IMG/VR virus record: IMGVR_UViG_2617270876_000003
Span: 32,001-96,000 of that record
Reading direction: 5' to 3' (one strand)
DNA from: a virus
Taxonomy: Duplodnaviria; Caudoviricetes
Length of the DNA stretch: 64,000 nucleotides
The translations under genes were made by a program, and so were the position numbers. The notes below the pieces were generated by a model. That model worked only from the letters and a program-made list of their open reading frames with translations, ran no database searches and had not been told where the DNA came from. Numbering within the stretch: the stretch's first letter is position 1; the number at the start of each line of letters is the position of its first letter. This document shows positions 13,858 to 63,564 of this stretch, one piece after another.

Positions 13858-15048
13858 TTAAAACTTATCAAATGTACATGGCTTTGCTTCCAAGATTTCT
13901 TTAAGATATGTATGTGCGTTTTCAGCAGTTAATTCTATTCCCATTATGTATTCAATCTCTTCTCTCACATCTTTTGGAATCATGTTGATCAGAGCATTAC
14001 CGTAACCAAGATTGTAAACCATTGCATTATATACTTTTTCATGGTTTATTCTCATCCATTGCATATACCCATATTTCACAGGTATTGGACACATCATACA
14101 GCCTGTTCGCGGAGTAAATATTTTGAATCCTAACTTTTCTAGCATCATTGCTTGTTTTCTATTTACTGTTTGAGTTTGTCTGTCGCCTAAATCGTAATAA
14201 TCAAGTTCATATTCTTCTATTAATGACTTATTAGCAAAAACAGTTTCTTCTGTGTTTTCAGGATACTCCTGGATCAAGTTCATTTTATAGAGATCGTTAA
14301 ATGGTATATTCTCTTGTTCTACATAGTCCCAAATGTCCTTCTCTCTCCACCACAGGATTGGACGACATACATATGACTTCCATTCAGCCACACTATAGAA
14401 GTATTCACCATCTCTAAGTCCGGCCTGAAGTCGCTGACTAGACTCGTCTGCTCTAAGTCCAACGATGAGCAAGTCCCAACTATTTTCCTTTACTGCTCTT
14501 TTCATGGGTTCGTGTTTAAGCGTTCCACAACATCTCTCACTCAGTGGCCTTCCGTTTCTTCGGTCTCCTTTTCTAGCCGTAAAATAATCATCTGTAATGC
14601 CACCGTTGCGGTCAATGATATGTTTCAATGTTCGTTTGGGTTTAGTAATTGTCAGTCTGAGGTTCCATAGATTTGTTAGCATTTTTTGATACTGGCGAAC
14701 CTCTCTAAATTCGTTTGCGGTATCATTCCAAACAATATCGATGTCCGAAGGATCTCTCCCCAGTTCTATTAGTGATTTTCTGGTTAGATAAATATCAATA
14801 ACACTATCTATACCAAATGAGCAAGAAATAACTGGTTTCTTTGCTCTCTGTAGTGCCATTTTTATCAAATCAATTGATAATCTCTCTTTTTCATCTAAGG
14901 ATATTGACTTATGTATGTTGAAATTTGCATATCTTGTTTCTTTATCTGCCCTTGTTTGGTTATACCTTTGCTTAGATTTCCCTTTATCATCTAGGTACTC
15001 TTCTTTTGTTGGGTTAATCTGTAACCCATACTGTTCAGATATATTCAA
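13858..15048 (-). CDS. PAPS-reductase-family (PP-loop) protein
   Basis: SCSFGIDS, WNDT, CCGTLKHEP, GLRADES, RTGCMMCP. Confidence 0.88.
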   Translation of the reverse strand: MNISEQYGLQINPTKEEYLDDKGKSKQRYNQTRADKETRYANFNIHKSISLDEKERLSIDLIKMALQRAKKPVISCSFGIDSVIDIYLTRKSLIELGRDPSDIDIVWNDTANEFREVRQYQKMLTNLWNLRLTITKPKRTLKHIIDRNGGITDDYFTARKGDRRNGRPLSERCCGTLKHEPMKRAVKENSWDLLIVGLRADESSQRLQAGLRDGEYFYSVAEWKSYVCRPILWWREKDIWDYVEQENIPFNDLYKMNLIQEYPENTEETVFANKSLIEEYELDYYDLGDRQTQTVNRKQAMMLEKLGFKIFTPRTGCMMCPIPVKYGYMQWMRINHEKVYNAMVYNLGYGNALINMIPKDVREEIEYIMGIELTAENAHTYLKEILEAKPCTFDKF

Positions 15049-34691: not shown

Positions 34692-36236
34692 TTAAATATG
34701 TTGCATGATGGTTTCACTTACAAGGCTCAAAAAACTTTCGCTCTCAATTATTTCTCCTTCAATTCGAGCCCCCATAACATTAATTTCAATTAAAACCTTA
34801 TCCAAATCTTTTAGTTCAACAGCGAAAGGCTCTAATAAATTAGCTGGCTTTTGATACCACGATGACAACTTGTTCTTCATCATATACCATGATCCATAAA
34901 GCTCACCCTCACCTCTTACTAATATTAAATTAAATCCTCTACCATTCACAACTTCTATATAGCCCCAAGCAACGATAAGTCGATCTTTTAGTTTTGGTCG
35001 CCGTACCACTTTTCTCTTTGTCTCAAAAAAACGATCTTCCTCTATCTTTTCAAAATTCTTGTCATACAAAATTTCAAATTTTAGTGTTCCTCTTTCTCCA
35101 GAAGGAAATCTAATATCAATATTGATTCTGTCTTGTTCAAGGCTTCTTATATCTCCAAGATTAATTTGTCCTTTTGTGTATTTCGTATTAAACTCATCAA
35201 TAAATTCTCTAAGCGGAGAATATATTTCTTGTTGGAATTGGTAGTTAATTTCTTTAATGTATTCTAAATGTTCTTTTCGCTTTCTTTCTGCTTCGAGTTC
35301 GAGTGTTTTAAACGAGTCATCCTTACTCACTCTAATGTTCACCAAATTATCTATTAAACTAGAGTTAGAGGTGGGAGGTATATCATCAATTTGCATGGTT
35401 GCCTCTACTTCATTCCAGTTCTTATATCTTCGGGCCACATTTTTTTCCAACATAGTAGTAATCATCTGAATCATTCCATTTGGGATGGAGTCATTGATTT
35501 GTTTTATTGGCTTGATATTTTGATAGAAATGCGCTTGTTGCCAGCTATGCATATCATCGATTGCAACATCATATGGATGTTGCAATGTAGCCAATTCATA
35601 GAACACAATTCCCATAGAGTAAATATCATTCTGTATGGTATTTGTCTCTTGTCTCCACCTTTCTGGTGCAGTATATTTTATTGAACCATCTGCTTTAAAT
35701 GTAAGTTGTCGCGTACCTTCATTAGCGTTTTTAGAAATGCCAAAATCAGCTATTTTTAAAATTCCATCTTTAATAAGTATATTCTCTAGTTTTATATCTC
35801 TATGTACTAAATGCTCATCCTCATTTATTGCTTTCATACCGTTTATTAATTGTGAATAAAGACCCTTTAACTCTGCCACATCAAAAAACTCGCCTTTTTG
35901 TTTTTGCCTTGTAACTGCATCTAATAATGTACCTTGATTGGCAAACTCCATGATTAAATATGGTGGAAGTCCTTTGTAGGTCTCTCCATCGTGTACATAA
36001 AAATATTTTAAAACATTAGTGTGATTAACTCTAAGTGCTGCCTGACATTCATTAAAAAAGGCATCATATGAGTGGGCCGAAGGGAATCCTGTAGGAAGTG
36101 TTTTTAGTGCGGATATGGAATCATCGACCGTATTTCTTAAACGGTACACAAACCCAAATCCTCCTCTTCCTATCATTTCTAAAACCTCGTAGGCTGTCTG
36201 GGCATGGTCAAATGCAATTGTTCCAGGTGTTATCAT
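34692..36236 (-). CDS. Hanks-type Ser/Thr protein kinase with soluble C-terminal domain
   Basis: IGRGGFGFVY, ALK, HRDIKLENIL, DFG, YTAPE, DIYSMG. Confidence 0.93.
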   Translation of the reverse strand: MITPGTIAFDHAQTAYEVLEMIGRGGFGFVYRLRNTVDDSISALKTLPTGFPSAHSYDAFFNECQAALRVNHTNVLKYFYVHDGETYKGLPPYLIMEFANQGTLLDAVTRQKQKGEFFDVAELKGLYSQLINGMKAINEDEHLVHRDIKLENILIKDGILKIADFGISKNANEGTRQLTFKADGSIKYTAPERWRQETNTIQNDIYSMGIVFYELATLQHPYDVAIDDMHSWQQAHFYQNIKPIKQINDSIPNGMIQMITTMLEKNVARRYKNWNEVEATMQIDDIPPTSNSSLIDNLVNIRVSKDDSFKTLELEAERKRKEHLEYIKEINYQFQQEIYSPLREFIDEFNTKYTKGQINLGDIRSLEQDRINIDIRFPSGERGTLKFEILYDKNFEKIEEDRFFETKRKVVRRPKLKDRLIVAWGYIEVVNGRGFNLILVRGEGELYGSWYMMKNKLSSWYQKPANLLEPFAVELKDLDKVLIEINVMGARIEGEIIESESFLSLVSETIMQHI

Positions 36237-49412: not shown

Positions 49413-50381
49413 TTAAAAAGGCAAATCGTCGTCCGAGATATCAATTGGCTTTCCTGCTCCGAACGTATTTTCATCAGGCGCAAACGGATCTTTCTTTGTG
49501 TTTGCACTAGAGAAGGGGTCATTATTATTGTTTCCACTGCCACCATTCCGCTGCTCTTTTGCCTTCTTCTTGTCTCTCATGCCTTGAATGTAAACTTCTT
49601 CACGATACTTTAGGGCTTTTTTAACCAGTTCTACATCAAAAGCATTTTTATCGTCTTCATCAAGGGGAACAGATCCACCTTCTACGAGGTATTCACGAAC
49701 TGTTTTGCGGTCAATCTTTTCTTGTGGTTCTCCAAAACCCACTTCAACTAGACGTTTTGTTACAATAGTTTGATTGACAATTTTGCCATGAACCGATACC
49801 GTCAACCCTTTCTCATAATTATTTGTAACGTAATTAACTGCGTGAGGATTAGCCACAACCACTTCAAAAGGAATTACCGATCCATTGTACATAGGAATGT
49901 AGCCTTTGATGATTGCCCGACCTGTTTCTTCTCCATCTTTTGTTTCCTCTTTAACATTTGCCACCATCATATCTAGCGAAAAAGTAGCTTGAGGATTAAA
50001 TTCTTCATTATCTTTTACTCGATTAATAAAATTGGAGTTGATTTTTGGATAAGATTTCAGTTTGTCGTCTTGTCCAATGTATTCATTGAGATCAACCTTG
50101 CCTTGAGTAACACGAACTCTGTCTCCCTCTTTTAGCTCTTCTTGAATTGTTTTGATTCCTTTGTAAATGGAATTAATATCTGTAGTGCCTTTTTTTAGTT
50201 TAAAGGAAAACACATTGATTGTATGGATAGAGTTTTCATCAACTTGAATATCAACCTCACCCTTAATCAGTTCCCGTCCATCTGGCATAGGCAGTTTATC
50301 TTCTTCAATACGAACTTCTTTTACGATACCTTCAATATGTACAACATTTTGCGCCTCTTGCAAAGTTTTTTCATTAGTCAT
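49413..50381 (-). CDS. phage ssDNA-binding protein (YorF-like)
   Basis: Two OB-like halves and acidic tail DISDDDLPF. Confidence 0.8.
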   Translation of the reverse strand: MTNEKTLQEAQNVVHIEGIVKEVRIEEDKLPMPDGRELIKGEVDIQVDENSIHTINVFSFKLKKGTTDINSIYKGIKTIQEELKEGDRVRVTQGKVDLNEYIGQDDKLKSYPKINSNFINRVKDNEEFNPQATFSLDMMVANVKEETKDGEETGRAIIKGYIPMYNGSVIPFEVVVANPHAVNYVTNNYEKGLTVSVHGKIVNQTIVTKRLVEVGFGEPQEKIDRKTVREYLVEGGSVPLDEDDKNAFDVELVKKALKYREEVYIQGMRDKKKAKEQRNGGSGNNNNDPFSSANTKKDPFAPDENTFGAGKPIDISDDDLPF

Positions 50382-50507: not shown

Positions 50508-51443
50508 TCAAAATCCAAATTTATTGAATCCTTCTTTTATAACTTCATTATCTTCCTCGAATGGTGAACCAGTTATCGTTCGTGGCTCCAAATCTTCTTT
50601 TGAGTATTTTTCAGACTCTAAGACACTCCCACCTGTAACAACTAATTCTTTTATTGATGTGCCAACAACAACTCGCTGTCCTTCATCATTTGTTGTTATT
50701 GGCACATAATGCCGTATGTTTCCATACACCTTGATTAACGAACCAAAGTGAATTTTATTGCTCAAATAATCAATTAATTCAGTGTTATCGCCTGATTTAT
50801 AAACGATAAAGTTGTAAGGAATTGCTCTAAAGCCACTCGACTCTTTAATAACTATTTTTCCAAATAAACTATATTTATTTTTATCTATTTGCTCAAAACC
50901 CACAAAAATAACTTCCTGGCTAAAATAAGCCGATATAAAATATTTTTTATCGTCAAAGTTGATTGGATCGTAAGAATAAATACTTTTGATAGTAAACTTT
51001 TCTTGTATTTCTCCATTATAATCTTCAATCTTCGTTGTACCTCTGATCAGTATGGTGTCTCCATCATTTAAATTACTGTTTAGATAGGTGATTGCGTCAT
51101 AACTCATCTGCACTAAATCAGATGGTTCATCATTGATATTTATCTTTATCATATTCGGAATCTTATATTTCTTAGTAATGAATTTATTTAATTCGTTCCA
51201 ATCAACCATTATGTATTTATTATCTTCTCTATTACCATATGCTTCATATACTTTAACCCTTGATGTTTTCATACCCATCAATTCCACATATACAAAGGCG
51301 TTATGGCTTACCTTTATTCCGAATTGTAGTCTTTTCCATTGGCAATCTTCCTTCTCTCCTTCTGTTACGGATTTCGTACTGGACAATCCAGTTACAATTC
51401 CTATTGCTTCGAAGTAACCGTATGTCGGCTGAAGTTCCATCAA
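50508..51443 (-). CDS. OB-fold SSB-like paralog (YorE-like)
   Basis: Similar layout to the neighbour (GDTILIRG, GSLIKVYGNI, ELVVTGG). Confidence 0.6.
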   Translation of the reverse strand: MMELQPTYGYFEAIGIVTGLSSTKSVTEGEKEDCQWKRLQFGIKVSHNAFVYVELMGMKTSRVKVYEAYGNREDNKYIMVDWNELNKFITKKYKIPNMIKININDEPSDLVQMSYDAITYLNSNLNDGDTILIRGTTKIEDYNGEIQEKFTIKSIYSYDPINFDDKKYFISAYFSQEVIFVGFEQIDKNKYSLFGKIVIKESSGFRAIPYNFIVYKSGDNTELIDYLSNKIHFGSLIKVYGNIRHYVPITTNDEGQRVVVGTSIKELVVTGGSVLESEKYSKEDLEPRTITGSPFEEDNEVIKEGFNKFGF

Positions 51444-51925
51444 CTCACTACCTTAATAAATTTATCTAAAGTCTTCCGCAGGAACCCAAGCTTCATACCC
51501 ATTATCGAATTCAACTCTCAAGTCCTGCTCGTAGCAGCCATTAAACAAATCTGATTTCTCGTCGATTACAACCCCACAATCACCATACTCGATTTCACCC
51601 TCACTATCATAACTATGTGAGAACAATTCTACTCTGTCTCCTACTTCATAAAATAATCCCTTCAATGTACTACCTCCTAAATATTAATCGTTTATGTAAT
51701 CGTGCAACTTCACACGTTATTTTAGTACTTCCTCGCTTCAATATCTTTATAAAAGTATTCTTTCAATTAATTATTATTTATTTTTATCTTATAAAGTAAT
51801 TCTATATATTAACGCCTCTAGAAAGCGATACATATTATCTTTAATCTCAGAATAACATACAATATATTAATTATCAATACTTATTTTTACTTTATAAGTT
51901 TAAGCCGAACTCTTTAGTCCGGCCA

Positions 51926-52333
51926 TTATACATACAGTAAGCATTCCATGTACCAGATGTCAAAATTAGACTTACTATGTATGTTGTACAAGTGTGCAGG
52001 ATCGTGCTGTAAAAGAGATATCTTTTTATGATTCAAAGGTTCCTGGAATAATTGCTGCAAAGCATTCTTTTTATCCTTCTTGAAAAATGAAACAAATTCA
52101 TCGCTGGAATTAAACCTATTTTCTTTTAATCGTTTTTTTCTTAAAGAGAAGGTATGTAATTCAATCTCTCTTCTATTTTTACTTTTACATTTATCAATAA
52201 ATCTGGCTTGTTTCTCTTCGTCCCCTTCTGTTACAAATTCAAACATCTCCCAAAATCCAGTGGCGTTTTTGTTGATTTTTAGTGCTTCGCAATAATCTGA
52301 TTTCATTTGCTTCTCTCCATTTTCTGTTTTCAT
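51926..52333 (-). CDS. hypothetical protein immediately downstream of the LytTR gene
   Basis: 135-aa ORF followed by hairpin GCCGAACT/AGTCCGGC at about 51904-51923. Confidence 0.6.
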   Translation of the reverse strand: MKTENGEKQMKSDYCEALKINKNATGFWEMFEFVTEGDEEKQARFIDKCKSKNRREIELHTFSLRKKRLKENRFNSSDEFVSFFKKDKKNALQQLFQEPLNHKKISLLQHDPAHLYNIHSKSNFDIWYMECLLYV

Positions 52334-52570
52334 ATTTTTGTAGTACTTATCACCTATTTCTTATTTACTAGTTTATAATTTCACCCATTTTTATGCAATA
52401 AAGTTAAGTTTGGGACGAATATTTGTTGACAATTACCCATAACTCGTCTTTAAAGTAAATAAATGTCGATTAGTGTCATAAATAAAGTCGAATGAAGGAC
52501 TATTGTTCTATTTATGTAATATATATCACCAATATATAATAAATCATCTTTTTATTTGTCCTTATTCTTG

Positions 52571-52954
52571 TCAAACTTTTTTCTTGAATAGTCGCTCAAG
52601 ATAATCCTTTACGGCTTGCACTCTCTTTTCGGCAACAGTAATTGTCCGCTTGGTTTGGTTCTTCGACTCATATATTAATAAATCATATTTATGATCATAA
52701 TCAGGTTTTTTATTTAAATTTGCTAAAATCCCTCTGTCAATCTTCACCATTCCTTCTTCTTTTTCTAGCAAAGCATACTCTTTATCAACGGATGTGCAGT
52801 TTCTAAATCTTCCCCTACTAGTGTAATATACCTTAAAAGATTTTTCTTTTTTTGTTGATTCTGTATTTATGTAGTCTATTTCGTCTAAACTTATCCATTC
52901 AGCTTCATCACTCATTTTCTCTCCATCCCACTTACAAACTATGAATGACTTCAT
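52571..52954 (-). CDS. stand-alone LytTR-domain transcriptional regulator (no receiver domain)
   Basis: ISLDEIDYI, VYYT..G.F, GMVKIDRGILANL, ITVA..R LytTR pattern; ATG 52954 after GGAG. Confidence 0.8.
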   Translation of the reverse strand: MKSFIVCKWDGEKMSDEAEWISLDEIDYINTESTKKEKSFKVYYTSRGRFRNCTSVDKEYALLEKEEGMVKIDRGILANLNKKPDYDHKYDLLIYESKNQTKRTITVAEKRVQAVKDYLERLFKKKV

Positions 52955-52974
52955 GTTGACTCCCACTCTCCTTT

Positions 52975-53017
52975 AAAAAATATGTGCATATACCAATAAA
53001 ATATGTATATGCACATA
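52975..53017 (-). terminator. intrinsic terminator between agrD and the LytTR gene
   Basis: 13-bp perfect IR TATGTGCATATAC 52981-93 / GTATATGCACATA 53005-17 followed by U6 on the minus strand. Confidence 0.75.
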
Positions 53018-53023
53018 CCGTTT

Positions 53024-53149
53024 TTATTTCATATCTTCCGGTACATCTTCTCCGTGGAGGATGGTCCAGCTTGCTGTTGCGGTTTGAACTACTGCAAAAA
53101 CAGTCAAAACTGTTCCAAGAATACTCATAATTTTATACTTACTCTTCAT
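53024..53149 (-). CDS. agrD: AgrD-like cyclic lactone autoinducer precursor, 41 aa
   Basis: Not in ORF track. MKSKYKIMSILGTVLTVFAVVQTATASWTILHGEDVPEDMK; AAGGAGGTG SD; overlaps agrB stop; leader, S-x4 core and acidic Pro tail. Confidence 0.9.
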   Translation of the reverse strand: MKSKYKIMSILGTVLTVFAVVQTATASWTILHGEDVPEDMK

Positions 53150-53690
53150 TAACTATCACCTCCTTTGCTGGAATATGGATCAAAGTCAAAGCCTGCATAA
53201 ACATTGCCAATGTTACAGTTGGATTCTTTAGTATTAATGAAAAAATAATCAATATTAAAGAAATTATCTTAAAAATATGGAAATTTTCTTTTCTGATTCT
53301 TGTACTATTGTTTATTTTAGAAGGAGAAAATATTAAACATAATAAAAAACTAATAATATTAAAAACAATGGAAAGTGAATCATTTACATATACCGAAATC
53401 TCCGTTATTGACAAGATTAAAAGTGTTGACGCAACAATACAAATATCAGCATTTTTCAAGTGGAATCCACCTGAAAATTGACGCAAGATTGAAAATGACA
53501 ATAAACATATTAAACATTTTATGAGAGTATCAGAATATAGACCATATCCAAATATTAATAACAATGGAAGCAGATTAGTAATAATTAACTTGATCGAATA
53601 TCTAGTTTTTTGATATGATGGCATTTCATCTTTGTAATTATTAGTTAGCCATCGAGCAATAAATTCAGAAAAATAATTAATCAATATCAT
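53139..53690 (-). CDS. agrB: AgrB accessory gene regulator B peptidase
   Basis: FSILRQFSGGFHL...C (catalytic His/Cys motif), FSPS, multi-pass membrane. Confidence 0.92.
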   Translation of the reverse strand: MILINYFSEFIARWLTNNYKDEMPSYQKTRYSIKLIITNLLPLLLIFGYGLYSDTLIKCLICLLSFSILRQFSGGFHLKNADICIVASTLLILSITEISVYVNDSLSIVFNIISFLLCLIFSPSKINNSTRIRKENFHIFKIISLILIIFSLILKNPTVTLAMFMQALTLIHIPAKEVIVNEE

Positions 53691-54330
53691 CCCTCATTTG
53701 TTTTTTGGTTTCAAGAACATAAATATTAAAAATACATAATATCCAAAACAGAATTTCTACTATTATATTATTAAACCTTGAAATATTGAGAAACATTATT
53801 ACAACCACTATAGAAGAAAGTATCAAAATTGTGTTTACTTTTGTGAATTTAATTTTATATGAATAATCATAAGGGAGAGTAGTAAAGTATAATCTTTTTC
53901 TTCTCATCAAAACACTTGATAATATCATAATTGATCCACTAATAATTTGAAGTAAACATCTTAAAAAATCGTTCTCTTGAATTTCTGAAATATTTGTATG
54001 TATAACCATAGTTGTAATAAGCACCAATACCAATTGAATTATCGCCTGTGAAACAAATCCTATTATTGTTAATCTAATAGATGAAAATACTGAAATTCTA
54101 AAATAAAATAATAACGATAAAAATAATAATATTAAACTGAACACAGATGTATAATTTTGAAAGTTATCGTGTTGGCTCAAAAAATAATTGCCAGTTGATA
54201 TAATAAACGCCGTAAGGAATATTTCTTTCCAATAACTTTTTAAATCAACTTTGAATGATCCAAAAGCAAATGTCAGAATTGAAACACCATCAATCATTGA
54301 AAACAGTATGTATACCAAAGCACTTCCCAT
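53677..54330 (-). CDS. polytopic membrane protein resembling an AgrC sensor domain without a kinase domain
   Basis: 217 aa, about 6-7 hydrophobic helices, no H/N/G boxes, overlaps agrB start. Confidence 0.7.
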   Translation of the reverse strand: MGSALVYILFSMIDGVSILTFAFGSFKVDLKSYWKEIFLTAFIISTGNYFLSQHDNFQNYTSVFSLILLFLSLLFYFRISVFSSIRLTIIGFVSQAIIQLVLVLITTMVIHTNISEIQENDFLRCLLQIISGSIMILSSVLMRRKRLYFTTLPYDYSYKIKFTKVNTILILSSIVVVIMFLNISRFNNIIVEILFWILCIFNIYVLETKKQMRDDID

Positions 54331-54381
54331 TACCCTTCCCCCGTTCGATTTATAAAGTAAATATAATTAACTTATGAATTA

Positions 54382-54409
54382 ATAATACCACAATATTCTA
54401 GCATGTCAA
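54382..54409 (-). promoter_or_regulatory. sigmaA promoter of the agr-like operon
   Basis: TTGACA-16-TATTAT with TGn extension. Confidence 0.65.
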
Positions 54410-54420
54410 CACTAAAATTC

Positions 54421-54454
54421 AAAAAAAAAGAAACGGGCTATTCTCCCGTTTCTT
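54421..54454 (-). terminator. intrinsic terminator after the repressor gene
   Basis: AAGAAACGGG / CCCGTTTCTT 10-bp stem followed by a U-run on the minus strand. Confidence 0.8.
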
Positions 54455-55442
54455 CGTCACCAATTAGTGGGTATAAAGATTCAATAGTTTCAATGTTTAG
54501 GAAGTCTGTTGTTAAGCGATTTACTCCTTTATAATCAATGTCAAACTTTCTACATACTTTCATTAGCTCTGTGCGTTCAAACTTGCCACTCTCACGATAA
54601 AGCTCATTTGCGTACTTCAACATACCCGATTTTCTGATATTAATTGGTGTTAAGTATGGGTAATCGAACCATTTGGCTATTTTTTTTATTCGTCTTGAGA
54701 CCAAGTTCGGTGGAGCATTATCTATATATTTTACATTTAATGCAACTGGTCTAAATACATAAGGAGACTCAATTAACTCTGCATCTCTAGCTTTAATAAA
54801 AACACTTTCGTTTCCGTTTGACTTATAATACACGGTTTGATGTGCAGCACTATATAGTAAGTTCATTAATTTTTGACTTATTTCTATTTCCCTTGTTTCC
54901 AGTGGCCCTTCTGCTGGTTTATTGCGAAGCGTAATATAACCATTTCCCCGGTCTACATCTTTCTCTAAGATATTTAATATTTCTGAGTATGCTCTTCCCA
55001 TTATCCCCTCGAATAAACACTGTATCAATGCAGAGTCTTGGGGATTGACAATGCGCCCAATAAACGAATTAATTTCTTCATCCGAAAACAAATATTTATT
55101 ACTTGTATCCACATAACTTTGTATTAATTCATCAGTTAGAGCTGCATCTAAAGGATTTATATTGTCAGCCCTAAGGTCTTCTTTAATTGCCCATCTTATA
55201 TATCTTCTAATTGTTAGTATCTGTGATTTACTTGACAAAAAAGTTGTTGGTGAAAGTAATTTCATTAACTGCCCAATTTCATACAAATTAAAATTAAATA
55301 AATCTTTGTTTAATTGCTCTTCTAAATAAGAGGCTCTTTTCAATACCCTAGAATAAGTATTGTATGTAGATTCCTCTAATCCCTTTAGATATCGATCTTT
55401 CTGGGGTTTATTAAAAAATTTATCTTCATATATTTTATTCAT
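54438..55442 (-). CDS. tyrosine-recombinase-fold repressor, YopR/MrpR-like
   Basis: EEQLNKDLFNF, YIRWAI, NPQD.ALI..LFEG..G...SEILN, INIRKSGM with degenerate catalytic motifs; ATGA-coupled to yopQ-like gene. Confidence 0.8.
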   Translation of the reverse strand: MNKIYEDKFFNKPQKDRYLKGLEESTYNTYSRVLKRASYLEEQLNKDLFNFNLYEIGQLMKLLSPTTFLSSKSQILTIRRYIRWAIKEDLRADNINPLDAALTDELIQSYVDTSNKYLFSDEEINSFIGRIVNPQDSALIQCLFEGIMGRAYSEILNILEKDVDRGNGYITLRNKPAEGPLETREIEISQKLMNLLYSAAHQTVYYKSNGNESVFIKARDAELIESPYVFRPVALNVKYIDNAPPNLVSRRIKKIAKWFDYPYLTPINIRKSGMLKYANELYRESGKFERTELMKVCRKFDIDYKGVNRLTTDFLNIETIESLYPLIGDEETGE

Positions 55443-56764
55443 TTTTTCTCCCCGCTTTCAACAAGAGCGTTGAAATATTTTAATACCTTTTTTCTTAAGG
55501 CTGATGAATTAATACCTCTTTTAGTATCACTAAGCAATCCATTTAGCTCTTCATCTTTTAAATTTAAGTTTTCAACATAGTTCTTTAATTCTTTTAATTC
55601 AATATTGTTGTCTTGAAAATACTTGGCAATTACAGTATATCCAATAAACATCAAAGGATGATTAATATTTGTGTCTTTGTATTTTTGAGGGCTTAATAAA
55701 AACTGGTCAACAAAACTTCCCGTCAGATAATCATAAAATTTAATCAGATATGTCGCCACTTCTCTTGCTTCAAGATTACTTTTTGGCTTAAATACATTTT
55801 CAATAGCATAAGACATTATATCAAATGTTGTAAGTTGCCCTGCAATTTCTGAAATTTTTGGCGATGATGCAATTTTTCCTTTTAGGTCTGACTTTTGTTG
55901 AAGTTCCTGTACAACAATGTCTTCTTTTCCTTCTGAAATCAATTCTTTTCTTCTTTGTTCCGGCACAACATTTATCGTATTTATTTGACCAAAAAATCTT
56001 TTTGCTGTTTCATCATTATAAACCCTAATCGACAAACCCATCATTTGAGGAAGTTCTGAATTAATTGATATAGCTCTAATCCCACCTTGAAGTCGATGAA
56101 ATCCATCAAGAATCGAAATTATCACATTTTCATTTATTATAAGTGTTTTCGCTTCCTCATTATATTCTACTGGATTATCACTATCTGAATATATATTTAA
56201 TGTTATGGTATCGTCCAAATAATTTTCTTTTAACATCTCTCTGGAAATGTCTTCAACACTTGATGGATTAATATCTGGTACCTGTACAATCCCATCTCTT
56301 CCTGCTATATATTTTGCGCTTCGTTGAGTTTCGAATTTATAAATAATTAATTGTGAATGAAACATTTGCACTAAATAAGACATCTCAACCTTGGTCAAGT
56401 AACTATTCTGTGTCACTCTTATTACATCATTAAATGCAATTGGCAAATATATTCGGTTTTCTTTTGTGTAAAGTGATCTAGCGTGTTTTTTAGATGTTTC
56501 AATCTCATTCTCAGTAAACCACTCCTTAGGATCTACATCCTTATAACCTGTAATTTGGTAAATTCCATCTGTTAATAAACAAAGAACAGGAGACTCAATT
56601 AAAGATACTTGTTGTATACCTTTAACGATATCTTCAAATGTTCCCAGTGGAATTCCATACTCCAAAAGATAACTACTTATATTGAATATTTTCTTTCTCG
56701 ATTTTTTTACTTCCCTTATTCTTTCTTGAATATGCAATTCAAGTTCTTCCCGATCTTTTAACAT
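55439..56764 (-). CDS. DGQHR/DndB (ParB-like) domain protein, YopQ-like
   Basis: ETQR, ILDGFHR, FFGQIN; directly upstream of yopR-like gene. Confidence 0.78.
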   Translation of the reverse strand: MLKDREELELHIQERIREVKKSRKKIFNISSYLLEYGIPLGTFEDIVKGIQQVSLIESPVLCLLTDGIYQITGYKDVDPKEWFTENEIETSKKHARSLYTKENRIYLPIAFNDVIRVTQNSYLTKVEMSYLVQMFHSQLIIYKFETQRSAKYIAGRDGIVQVPDINPSSVEDISREMLKENYLDDTITLNIYSDSDNPVEYNEEAKTLIINENVIISILDGFHRLQGGIRAISINSELPQMMGLSIRVYNDETAKRFFGQINTINVVPEQRRKELISEGKEDIVVQELQQKSDLKGKIASSPKISEIAGQLTTFDIMSYAIENVFKPKSNLEAREVATYLIKFYDYLTGSFVDQFLLSPQKYKDTNINHPLMFIGYTVIAKYFQDNNIELKELKNYVENLNLKDEELNGLLSDTKRGINSSALRKKVLKYFNALVESGEKK

Positions 56765-56818
56765 ATTTTCACTCCTTCTTTATTTAAATTATAACACAAA
56801 AATAAACTATGTTATAAT

Positions 56819-63021: not shown

Positions 63022-63501
63022 TTATCTAAAATTTGTTCTGTTGCTATAATATTTTTTATTCCCTAACATGCTAATCATCCACGCTTTTTCTAATTCATCA
63101 TGATACTCTTCAGGTATATGTGTCAACTTCCTATTACCAATTAGTTCTGTATCTTTACTTAGGGTGAATATTTGTTCGAATTGAATAATACTATCACGTT
63201 GAAAGCCAACATCTTCTGCTGAGATATGTACCTGTGTCGGTAATTTGTTTTTAGTTTTGCTACTTGTAATAGGAGCTACAATAACCACAGGAGATCTTTG
63301 ATTTCCAACATCATTGCTAATGACAAGGACTGGTCTTTTTCCACCTTGAACATGTCCATTTGATTCTCCTAAATCTGCAAACCACACATCATATTGTTTA
63401 ACATCTTTTAATTTATTTTTATTTTCATAAGTTAGTGTACTCATATTATTGCCTCCTAAAACATGTCTTATATGTACTGTAGCTACTACTTTATGTTTCA
63501 T
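63022..63501 (-). CDS. mazF: PemK/MazF (NdoA-like) endoribonuclease; alternative start at 63444
   Basis: DVWFADL, QGGKRPVLVISND.GN..SP.VIVAPITS, LPT.V, EQI.T..K. Confidence 0.9.
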   Translation of the reverse strand: MKHKVVATVHIRHVLGGNNMSTLTYENKNKLKDVKQYDVWFADLGESNGHVQGGKRPVLVISNDVGNQRSPVVIVAPITSSKTKNKLPTQVHISAEDVGFQRDSIIQFEQIFTLSKDTELIGNRKLTHIPEEYHDELEKAWMISMLGNKKYYSNRTNFR

Positions 63502-63550: not shown

Positions 63551-63564
63551 GGAACATTTGTTCT
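63551..63564. promoter_or_regulatory. LexA box upstream of mazF
   Basis: gGAACatttGTTCt next to minus-strand TTGAGA-16-TATAAT at 63522-49. Confidence 0.75.

Follow-up and report, generated by a model that had tools for sequence, protein, structure and literature searches.

The present analysis concerns a four-gene cassette of the agr peptide-signalling type in a 64,000-nucleotide (nt) stretch of phage DNA (positions 32,001 to 96,000 of IMG/VR record IMGVR_UViG_2617270876_000003; the whole of this stretch is called the window below). The window lies within a single 5.87-Mb contig of a Paenibacillus genome, in a low-GC island of ~196 kb (~4,232,000-4,428,000) with 33% G+C against 50% for the genome. 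Together with its promoter the cassette occupies 54409-52571, and all of its features and those immediately flanking it are on the minus strand. In order of transcription it encodes a sensor-only membrane protein of 217 amino acids (aa) with seven helices (54330..53677), which resembles the sensor module of AgrC without the DHp and ATPase domains; the peptidase/cyclase AgrB, 183 aa (53690..53139); an AgrD precursor of 41 aa (53149..53024); and a LytTR-only DNA-binding protein without a receiver domain (52954..52571, 127 aa from an ATG, or 52966..52571, 131 aa from a GTG). The ATG, which stands 5 nt past a GGGAG, appears the likelier start of the last gene. An earlier sequence-only reading of this DNA had placed these four genes and a promoter just behind yopQ/yopR-like genes, and its coordinates and quoted residues (RQFSGGFH...C in AgrB and TATASWTILHGEDVPEDMK in AgrD) proved correct. 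We hold the identity of the four parts with high confidence.

The membrane protein had no Pfam or NCBIfam match, hence no HATPase or HisKA domain, and agrB overlaps the 3′ end of its gene by 14 nt, which therefore leaves no room for a frameshifted kinase behind it. An AlphaFold model (pLDDT 93.7, pTM 0.89) consists of seven long helices, and a reading of the sequence by the positive-inside rule would place the N-terminus outside and the basic loop at 145-163 and the C-terminus inside. Relatives are of similar length: with a profile of five sequences, 570 cluster representatives passed E<=0.001 and 335 passed E<=1e-10, and the best 150 of the 570 are all 171-240 aa long. A word-indexed protein search returned two Paenibacillus relatives, the closest found, and none of at least 400 aa, as fused forms would be, although this last is weak evidence. 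In PHROGs, where families exist for three of the four cassette proteins, the membrane protein matched phrog_15604 (4.5e-14), which is filed under ‘moron, auxiliary metabolic gene and host takeover’.

A 72-sequence profile of the membrane-protein family, A4, matched 52 of 301 Bacillota genomes, and about 19 of the matches listed lie in open frames of 440-496 aa, covering profile positions ~3-190 or more. All of the 12 matching Bacillota loci that were inspected in detail (L110-L121) encode proteins of 434-461 aa, 13 in total since L116 has two, and in every one of these the N-terminal ~200 aa match A4 (E 7e-8 to 7e-15) while the C-terminal ~200 aa score as a kinase catalytic region (E 1e-23 to 1e-32 against a profile of that region). 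AgrB adjoins the kinase in nine of the 12 loci and a 236-272-aa protein with a C-terminal LytTR domain does so in ten. When ten proteins from these loci were run against Pfam, SPOB_a with HATPase_c or HATPase_c_5 was found in all five kinases, AgrB in the single AgrB and Response_reg with LytTR in all four regulators. Direct comparison of A4 with one agr-linked kinase by hhalign gave 96% probability (E 4.5e-9, 185 columns), and a structural search of the ESM Atlas matched the model to a cluster of 422-aa HATPase_c_5 kinases (TM 0.61 over 204 residues). Among solved structures there was no counterpart, either for A4 against PDB sequences at E<=10 or for the model in Foldseek at E<=0.001; a kinship with Pex3 (VIA-align best Z 8.9) was rejected as a generic helical match. 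Its sequence marks the membrane protein as homologous to the sensor part of AgrC-type kinases. The gene order in the kinase-bearing loci, i.e. kinase, AgrB, (AgrD), regulator, is also that of the cassette, and from shared gene order and sensor homology together it follows that the cassette corresponds to an agrC-B-D-A locus minus the DHp and ATPase domains of AgrC and the receiver of AgrA.

The two signal-producing genes are of ordinary agr type. Hidden Markov model searches, a check that the sequence-only reading had proposed, identified AgrB (Pfam PF04647, 7.9e-22; 77.9 bits against a cut-off of 23) and AgrD (NCBIfam TIGR04223, 23.5 bits against a cut-off of 19), with neither HATPase_c nor receiver anywhere in the cassette. 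Residues H77 and C84 of AgrB, which we take to be equivalent to the catalytic residues of S. aureus AgrB, are invariant in an alignment of eight sequences that includes canonical loci. In AgrD the segment ASWTIL is followed by HGEDVPEDMK, i.e. a ring-type Ser five residues before the cleavage site and then an acidic tail of the P-x-E-L type, so that a peptide with the ring SWTIL, closed through Ser, is predicted. The motif ASWT is common to all six AgrDs compared, that of the window and those of five syntenic phage cassettes, and the predicted rings are SWTIL (the window and L108), SWTFL, SWTVI, SWTIV and SWTLI. Ser-type AgrDs were also found in three kinase-bearing loci in a crude scan of nine, and therefore the Ser ring is a trait of the clade rather than of kinase-less loci. 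A second type of AgrD, with neither Cys nor Ser at the expected ring position, was observed in the host's chromosomal cassette (L012:4870-4998), in the Brevibacillus phages Abouo (gp46, L083:4384-4512) and Davies (gp47, L084:4525-4644) and in many of the Paenibacillaceae loci L027-L053; it has a conserved Lys a few residues before a tail HSPE(A/I)P(K/Q)ELRK, e.g. ...VLKPLYHSPEIPQELRK, and its sequence hints at another way of closing the ring, possibly as a lactam.

Identification of the fourth gene required more than one line of evidence. The protein was aligned with 27 proteins from the same position in other cassettes (alignment A5), all 27 of which pass E<=0.01 against Pfam LytTR, so that the protein of the window is the only one of the 28 that does not, and D73 and R74 are invariant throughout. 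An AlphaFold model built with this alignment (pLDDT 89.7) had LytTR domains as all of its ten best PDB matches, including a B. cereus LytTR domain and ComE, the top match being AgrA (4g4k; E 1.5e-4, TM by target 0.75); because the model leans on a LytTR alignment, the structural match is supportive rather than independent. Other searches yielded phrog_15081 (9.4e-9) and, in the word-indexed protein search, a self-match only; the five closest relatives, all from cassettes linked to MrpR-like repressors, are 31-48% identical. Synteny, alignment and the structural model together indicate that the fourth gene encodes a divergent LytTR domain, much as the sequence-only reading had it. Proteins at this position in other cassettes are 109-150 aa long and none has a receiver domain. 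In one Paenibacillaceae cassette (L034:2804-3526) two LytTR domains in tandem make up a regulator of 240 aa. About 3.6 kb past the end of the window, still inside the low-GC island, another LytTR-only gene (host genome G000 4332347-4332739, minus strand; L014:4348-4740; 130 aa, Pfam LytTR 3.7e-6) stands alone, with neither AgrB nor AgrD nor a membrane gene as a neighbour; its product is 19% identical to the cassette protein. The absence of both a kinase and a receiver, which the sequence-only reading had claimed, extends to the surroundings: none of the 73 HATPase_c matches and none of the 66 Response_reg matches in the genome lies inside the island or adjoins the other two cassettes of the host.

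The cassette has its own transcription signals. A sigma-A-type promoter (TTGACA-16 nt-TATTAT with an upstream TG; 54409..54382), matching at 11 of 12 positions, is the best and the only 11-of-12 site within 51400-55000, in a scan that overall found 19 sites against 22.4 in shuffled sequence, i.e. no excess. TTGAC-type promoters occupy the equivalent place in three syntenic prophages. Immediately before it an intrinsic terminator (11-bp stem and T run; 54455..54427) closes the gene upstream, and an equivalent hairpin with T run is present in L087, L089 and L093. Since a strong promoter of its own thus sits behind the terminator of the repressor gene, the cassette is probably expressed in the lysogen, and to judge by sequence the promoter looks constitutive. 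Between agrD and the LytTR gene there is a perfect 13-bp hairpin followed by T6 (53017..52981; minimum free energy -23.2 kcal/mol), which is likely a partial terminator or attenuator. All six syntenic cassettes have a stable hairpin (-21 to -26 kcal/mol) just past the stop codon of agrD even though the sequences are unrelated, the T6 being found in the window and L089, and this fits a regulator expressed at a lower level than its presumed membrane partner.

The genes upstream are those of an SPbeta-type lysogeny module. The first encodes a YopQ-like protein of 441 aa (56764..55439; phrog_5732, 5.4e-106; 26% identity and 2e-30 by tblastn with SPbeta YopQ; Pfam DndB at 1.9e-5, below the cut-off), and the second an MrpR/YopR-like protein of 334 aa with a tyrosine-recombinase fold (55442..54438; phrog_5830, 6.5e-79; Pfam MrpR_N_CB 6e-23 and MrpR_C_cat 2.4e-14; 9e-24 by tblastn with SPbeta YopR). 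The latter shares 29-31% identity with genes of SPbeta, phi3T, pW2 and the large B. cereus-group phages, and matched 76 phage records. MrpR (YopR) is described as the master repressor of SPbeta (PMC10516654). The large open reading frames upstream had no Pfam or NCBIfam match. Elsewhere the island carries phage replication genes (RecJ-like nuclease, DnaB helicase, primase and DNA polymerase) and an anti-repressor, and with an MrpR-like gene that has the YopQ-like one directly upstream, in a large prophage-like stretch, it has the marks of an SPbeta-like prophage; that the whole 196 kb is one prophage is a reading, not a demonstration. In a phage collection, neither the DNA of 52300-56800 nor tblastn with the LytTR-like and membrane proteins gave a match; only AgrB and MrpR as queries did. 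The sequence-only reading had seen no aimR or aimP, and tblastn of SPbeta AimR and AimP against the whole genome likewise found nothing at E<=0.01; because AimR proteins diverge fast, this negative from a single AimR query is weak evidence.

On its other side the cassette is followed by what looks like an early promoter region. At the start of this downstream region a degenerate LexA-box-like site, AGAACAATAGTCCT (52509..52496), lies behind a -10-like element and is followed by TCGAC direct repeats (TCGAC..TGACA..TCGACA; 52491..52456), a candidate operator that, from sequence, is possibly that of the LytTR protein. The arrangement recurs in relatives. MrpR-like genes were found in 27 of 300 other Paenibacillaceae genomes, and among the best 20 of the 30 places listed, six have cassette genes directly behind MrpR: L087, L089 and L093, from one genus, keep the order YopQ-like, MrpR-like, membrane gene, AgrB, AgrD, LytTR as in the window, and L099, L100 and L103, from three other genera, have a different order or a partial set. 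The remaining 14 lack the cassette. In IMG/VR, two of three matches (L107, 58% identity, and L108, 39%) keep all six genes in this order too; they lie on the two closest viral contigs there, which are 173 and 138 kb long. All five syntenic prophages have, downstream of the LytTR gene, a -10 element, a full GAAC-N4-GTTC LexA box at the homologous position and then TCGACA-N5-CGACA 10-20 nt on, and L087, L089 and L093 also carry a TTGTCAAG element and a second promoter-like site. Within 4.5 kb, none of the 14 cassette-less MrpR loci has the TCGACA repeat pattern. SPBRE, the MrpR operator of SPbeta, is described as multi-copy (PMC10516654), unlike these repeats: in the island their pattern occurs twice against 1.4 expected, with a single copy near the cassette, the TCGAC pattern with two mismatches occurs five times in the window against 3.6, and TTGTCAAS occurs 15 times in the island against 14.6. 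The idea that the repeats are a multi-copy SPBRE-like MrpR operator was rejected on this lack of enrichment.

The cassette is far more widespread than these phages. Of 301 Paenibacillaceae genomes, the host's included, 190 have the membrane family, among them 33 of 36 genomes of the host genus, and 17 of 19 genera are represented; copies mostly number one to five. Among the best 30 Paenibacillaceae loci, 29 have the membrane gene, AgrB and the LytTR-only gene in that order, L028 being without a LytTR match, and 26 have an AgrD-like open reading frame of 39-56 aa between AgrB and the LytTR gene; for the other four the AgrD search window was <60 nt by construction. The host genome has three AgrB genes, each within such a cassette. 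Apart from that in the window, one lies in ordinary chromosome, where ~10 kb around it dip to 37-42% G+C, and one in a second low-GC island of ~55 kb (G000 3,255,000-3,310,000; L013), with an AgrD ending ...STASVIYVYQGNTPNELLK, adjoining XRE-type regulator genes and ~4 kb from a YopP-like recombinase gene. The genome also has an orphan AgrC-type kinase (G000 1,095,640-1,097,650; L016; 424 aa, HATPase_c_5 5.2e-23), which adjoins a Response_reg+LytTR regulator with no AgrB nearby, the only such pair in the genome. It is possible that this kinase is a trans-acting receptor for one of the three autoinducing peptides (AIPs) of the host. The sequence-only reading had held that a cognate kinase elsewhere would count against a kinase-less system; the island is free of one, the orphan pair lying at 1.095 Mb.

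The cassette is also present in isolated phages. In Abouo (gp44-47) and Davies (gp44-48), two phages of Brevibacillus laterosporus, all four genes recur with their order unchanged, and Abouo gp44 (2.3e-41) and Davies gp45 (2.6e-43) match A4, i.e. belong to the membrane family of the window. Abouo gp47 is, like the fourth gene of the window, LytTR-only (Pfam LytTR 9.7e-7), though the records of both phages annotate that gene ‘peptidase’. As in the window the cassette lies in the lysogeny region, between integrase and repressor genes, but these are 45-kb phages with an integrase and a CI-type switch, compared with a ~196-kb prophage with an SPbeta-type MrpR/YopQ module, and their AgrDs lack the Ser or Cys at the ring position where that of the window has Ser. 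In Davies (L084:2604-4008) two tandem paralogues, gp44 (2.4e-37) and gp45 (2.6e-43), both belong to the sensor-only family. Kinase-less “AgrC-like” proteins, ‘one or two’ per phage, were noted in Brevibacillus phages Abouo, Davies and Emery by Hargreaves 2014 (PMC3901668), the passages of which drawn on here make no mention of the LytTR identity of the fourth gene.

Each of several known systems shares part of this design. Canonical agr (agrBDCA of Staphylococcus; agrC-B-D-A in L110-L121) has in common with the window the AgrB His and Cys, the P-x-E-L type of AgrD tail, the LytTR domain and a homologous sensor module, with identical C-B-D-A gene order in the latter loci, whereas the cassette, having no DHp/ATPase and no receiver, has no phosphotransfer. 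In P. polymyxa, papers on AIPs describe the locus as agrABCD with a kinase (PMC12180512, PMC13700820). Streptococcal LytTR regulatory systems (LRS; HdrRM, BrsRM) likewise pair a receiver-less LytTR regulator with a co-encoded membrane protein, which is described as inhibiting the regulator without phosphotransfer (Zou et al. 2018, PMC6193735). The same source has the LRS regulator gene first with the membrane gene directly downstream, whereas in the window the operon opens with the membrane gene and agrB and agrD separate it from the regulator at the end; ‘AgrB’ is absent from that text, and LRS have no AgrB/AgrD; their membrane proteins are of other kinds (DUF2154 is named for HdrM), their signal is given as unknown and they auto-activate via direct repeats (PMC6193735). 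The C. difficile phage phiCDHM1 with its agrBDC also carries a phage-borne signal-production module, but is described as having a full 453-aa AgrC kinase and no regulator gene (PMC3901668), against a kinase-less sensor and a LytTR regulator here. Arbitrium (AimR-AimP-AimX) is, like the cassette, a peptide communication system adjoining the yopM-R/MrpR operon in SPbeta-type prophages; aimR-aimP is upstream of yopM-yopR in SPbeta and the cassette is downstream of mrpR. Arbitrium uses a linear hexapeptide and an intracellular TPR receptor.

Since neither phosphorelay domain is present, the signal must travel another way. From what is known of the family, AgrB, through His77 and Cys84, would cut and cyclise AgrD into an exported Ser-lactone with the ring SWTIL, and this peptide would bind the extracellular face of the sensor-only protein. 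The latter might then relay the signal by direct contact instead of phosphotransfer, so that in one state it would keep the LytTR protein at the membrane and in the other let it go, as is the case with anti-sigma factors and in streptococcal LRS; the likeliest docking site is the basic, conserved loop that joins helices 5 and 6 in the cytoplasm. Such contact-based signalling from sensor module to LytTR protein has in our estimate an even or slightly better than even chance, and the full chain, from an intact agr-type cassette on a prophage with neither phosphorelay module to signalling by contact, we put at about even. A freed LytTR protein could, as a weaker suggestion, act on the TCGAC repeats just downstream of the cassette, at the SOS-type early promoter of the phage, in which case induction or the choice between lysis and lysogeny would respond to how dense lysogens or infected cells are. 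A role for the cassette in the phage's own decision is, in our opinion, plausible but less likely than not. The broadest form of the proposal, equally tentative, is that SPbeta-type phages of the Paenibacillaceae might use a phosphorylation-free agr in place of arbitrium, in which a Ser-lactone acts on a bare AgrC sensor, LytTR is released or captured and binds TCGACA repeats at the LexA-controlled early promoter, and density of kin lysogens gates SOS induction or lysis-lysogeny. The sequence-only reading had suggested a lysis-lysogeny function, for which recurrence behind MrpR and before a LexA-box early promoter gives circumstantial support.

Several observations weigh against this proposal. 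Most cassette copies are chromosomal, and therefore the cassette itself implies no phage-specific role. The LexA-like box of the window has one core mismatch (GTCC for GTTC) and its TCGAC repeats are spaced unlike those of the relatives; the repeats lie downstream of the -10 of the first promoter, not upstream of a -35 as at AgrA-activated promoters; and the co-occurrence of repeats and cassette may be mere kinship of prophages, three of which are in one genus. Neither TCGAC-type nor other direct repeats were seen between the terminator and the cassette promoter in four aligned upstream regions, and therefore there is no sign there of the auto-induction typical of agr. The LytTR protein of the window had no Pfam match at E<=1 and was missed by the PF04397 search of its own genome, and of its five closest relatives only L108 passes Pfam LytTR (25 bits), L107 falling below the cut-off and three having no match. 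Lastly, profile comparison of A4 was negative both with the orphan AgrC-type kinase of the host (0.3%) and with the N-termini of 25 Paenibacillaceae HATPase_c_5 kinases (6%), sensor homology being seen only with agr-linked kinases from other families.

In a different explanation the kinase-less mechanism is the same but the cassette is a lysogenic-conversion moron, carried at a permissive place beside the lysogeny genes, with host genes or its own operon as output, as is presumably true of the numerous chromosomal copies, and with no part in lysis-lysogeny. Such a role would suit a membrane family so common in the Paenibacillaceae and nearly universal in the host genus, one of whose three host cassettes lies in ordinary chromosome and not in a large low-GC island, as well as the moron category assigned by PHROGs, the promoter of its own after a terminator, and the 14 of 20 MrpR-type loci that manage without it. 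It would not readily account for the cassette turning up repeatedly, in prophages of several genera, in the one place between repressor gene and SOS-type early promoter, for its being found also among the lysogeny genes of the unrelated 45-kb Brevibacillus phages, or for TCGACA repeats by the early promoter being seen only where the cassette is present, and we regard it as fairly unlikely.

A further explanation is interference or eavesdropping, in which the AIP is read by a host AgrC-type kinase, such as that of the orphan pair at 1.095 Mb, or the truncated proteins are dominant-negative decoys that soak up host peptide or block AgrA-type boxes. Truncated receptors are a known route to interfere with signalling, the host does have such a kinase and a Response_reg+LytTR regulator without AgrB, and kinases of the orphan's type were found at E<=1e-15 in all four sampled genomes of the genus. 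But the same comparisons that gave 0.3% and 6% leave the sensor region of the orphan without detectable similarity to the cassette membrane protein, 32 of 61 sampled genomes of the family are without a strong HATPase_c_5 kinase where the cassette family is in 190 of 301, and in 29 of 30 loci the genes stay side by side, intact and in the one order, as would be expected if they form a self-contained system but not if they are separate decoys; this explanation is quite unlikely. That the cassette is merely a decaying, non-functional agrCBDA remnant that lost its kinase and receiver domains, as the divergence of the LytTR protein beyond Pfam recognition and the imperfect neighbouring LexA-like box might suggest, is highly improbable given four open frames each with a ribosome-binding site, an AgrB whose catalytic His and Cys are invariant, a membrane family whose 570 representatives are uniform in length, confident AlphaFold models of both the membrane and LytTR proteins, and an architecture kept across genera and in isolated phages.

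Some other genes of the window were observed in passing, all on the minus strand. Two phrog_2367 paralogues lie side by side (49413-50381, 1.3e-48, and 50508-51443, 1.3e-22) after the early promoter region downstream of the cassette, the first ending in an SSB-like acidic tail ...DDDLPF. A PAPS-reductase-like gene (13858-15048; phrog_424, 2.5e-47), filed as a moron, stands amid replication genes, and a eukaryotic-type Ser/Thr protein kinase of 514 aa is encoded at 34692-36236 (Pfam Pkinase 3.4e-44). A PemK/MazF-type toxin gene (63022-63501; Pfam 2.7e-25) has a full LexA-type box, AGAACAAATGTTCC, ~50 nt upstream at 63551-63564.

The novelty that the sequence-only reading had claimed was overstated, since isolated Brevibacillus phages carry the cassette too, a paper of 2014 had already commented on it and in the Paenibacillaceae it is mostly chromosomal; its occurrence in phages is thus already in print, and its abundance in genomes is plain. 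No functional study of a kinase-less agr cassette was found in the main texts of the literature searched; the supplementary LRS table (>4600 operons, PMC6193735) and Figure S3 of PMC3901668 may be relevant to whether it was described earlier. What is new, as far as sequence comparison can establish it, is the match of the membrane protein to the AgrC sensor module, the C-B-D-A order shared with kinase-bearing relatives and the conserved position before a LexA-box promoter; from the window itself comes a Ser-type member in an SPbeta-type prophage.

To our knowledge agr, the textbook peptide quorum-sensing system of Gram-positive bacteria, has always been described as a relay of kinase and response regulator. 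Here a large conserved family, with 570 clusters and in about two thirds of the sampled Paenibacillaceae genomes, keeps the signal genes, the sensor and the DNA-binding domain, and temperate phages of two or more unrelated kinds have copies of it at their lysogeny switch. The related Ser-type pherotypes (SWTIL, SWTFL, SWTVI, SWTIV and SWTLI) invite a comparison of cross-talk. The hypothesis offered is one of peptide-controlled induction without arbitrium and, if true, it would give phages a second communication system, evolved independently, and the agr family a new mode of signal transduction.

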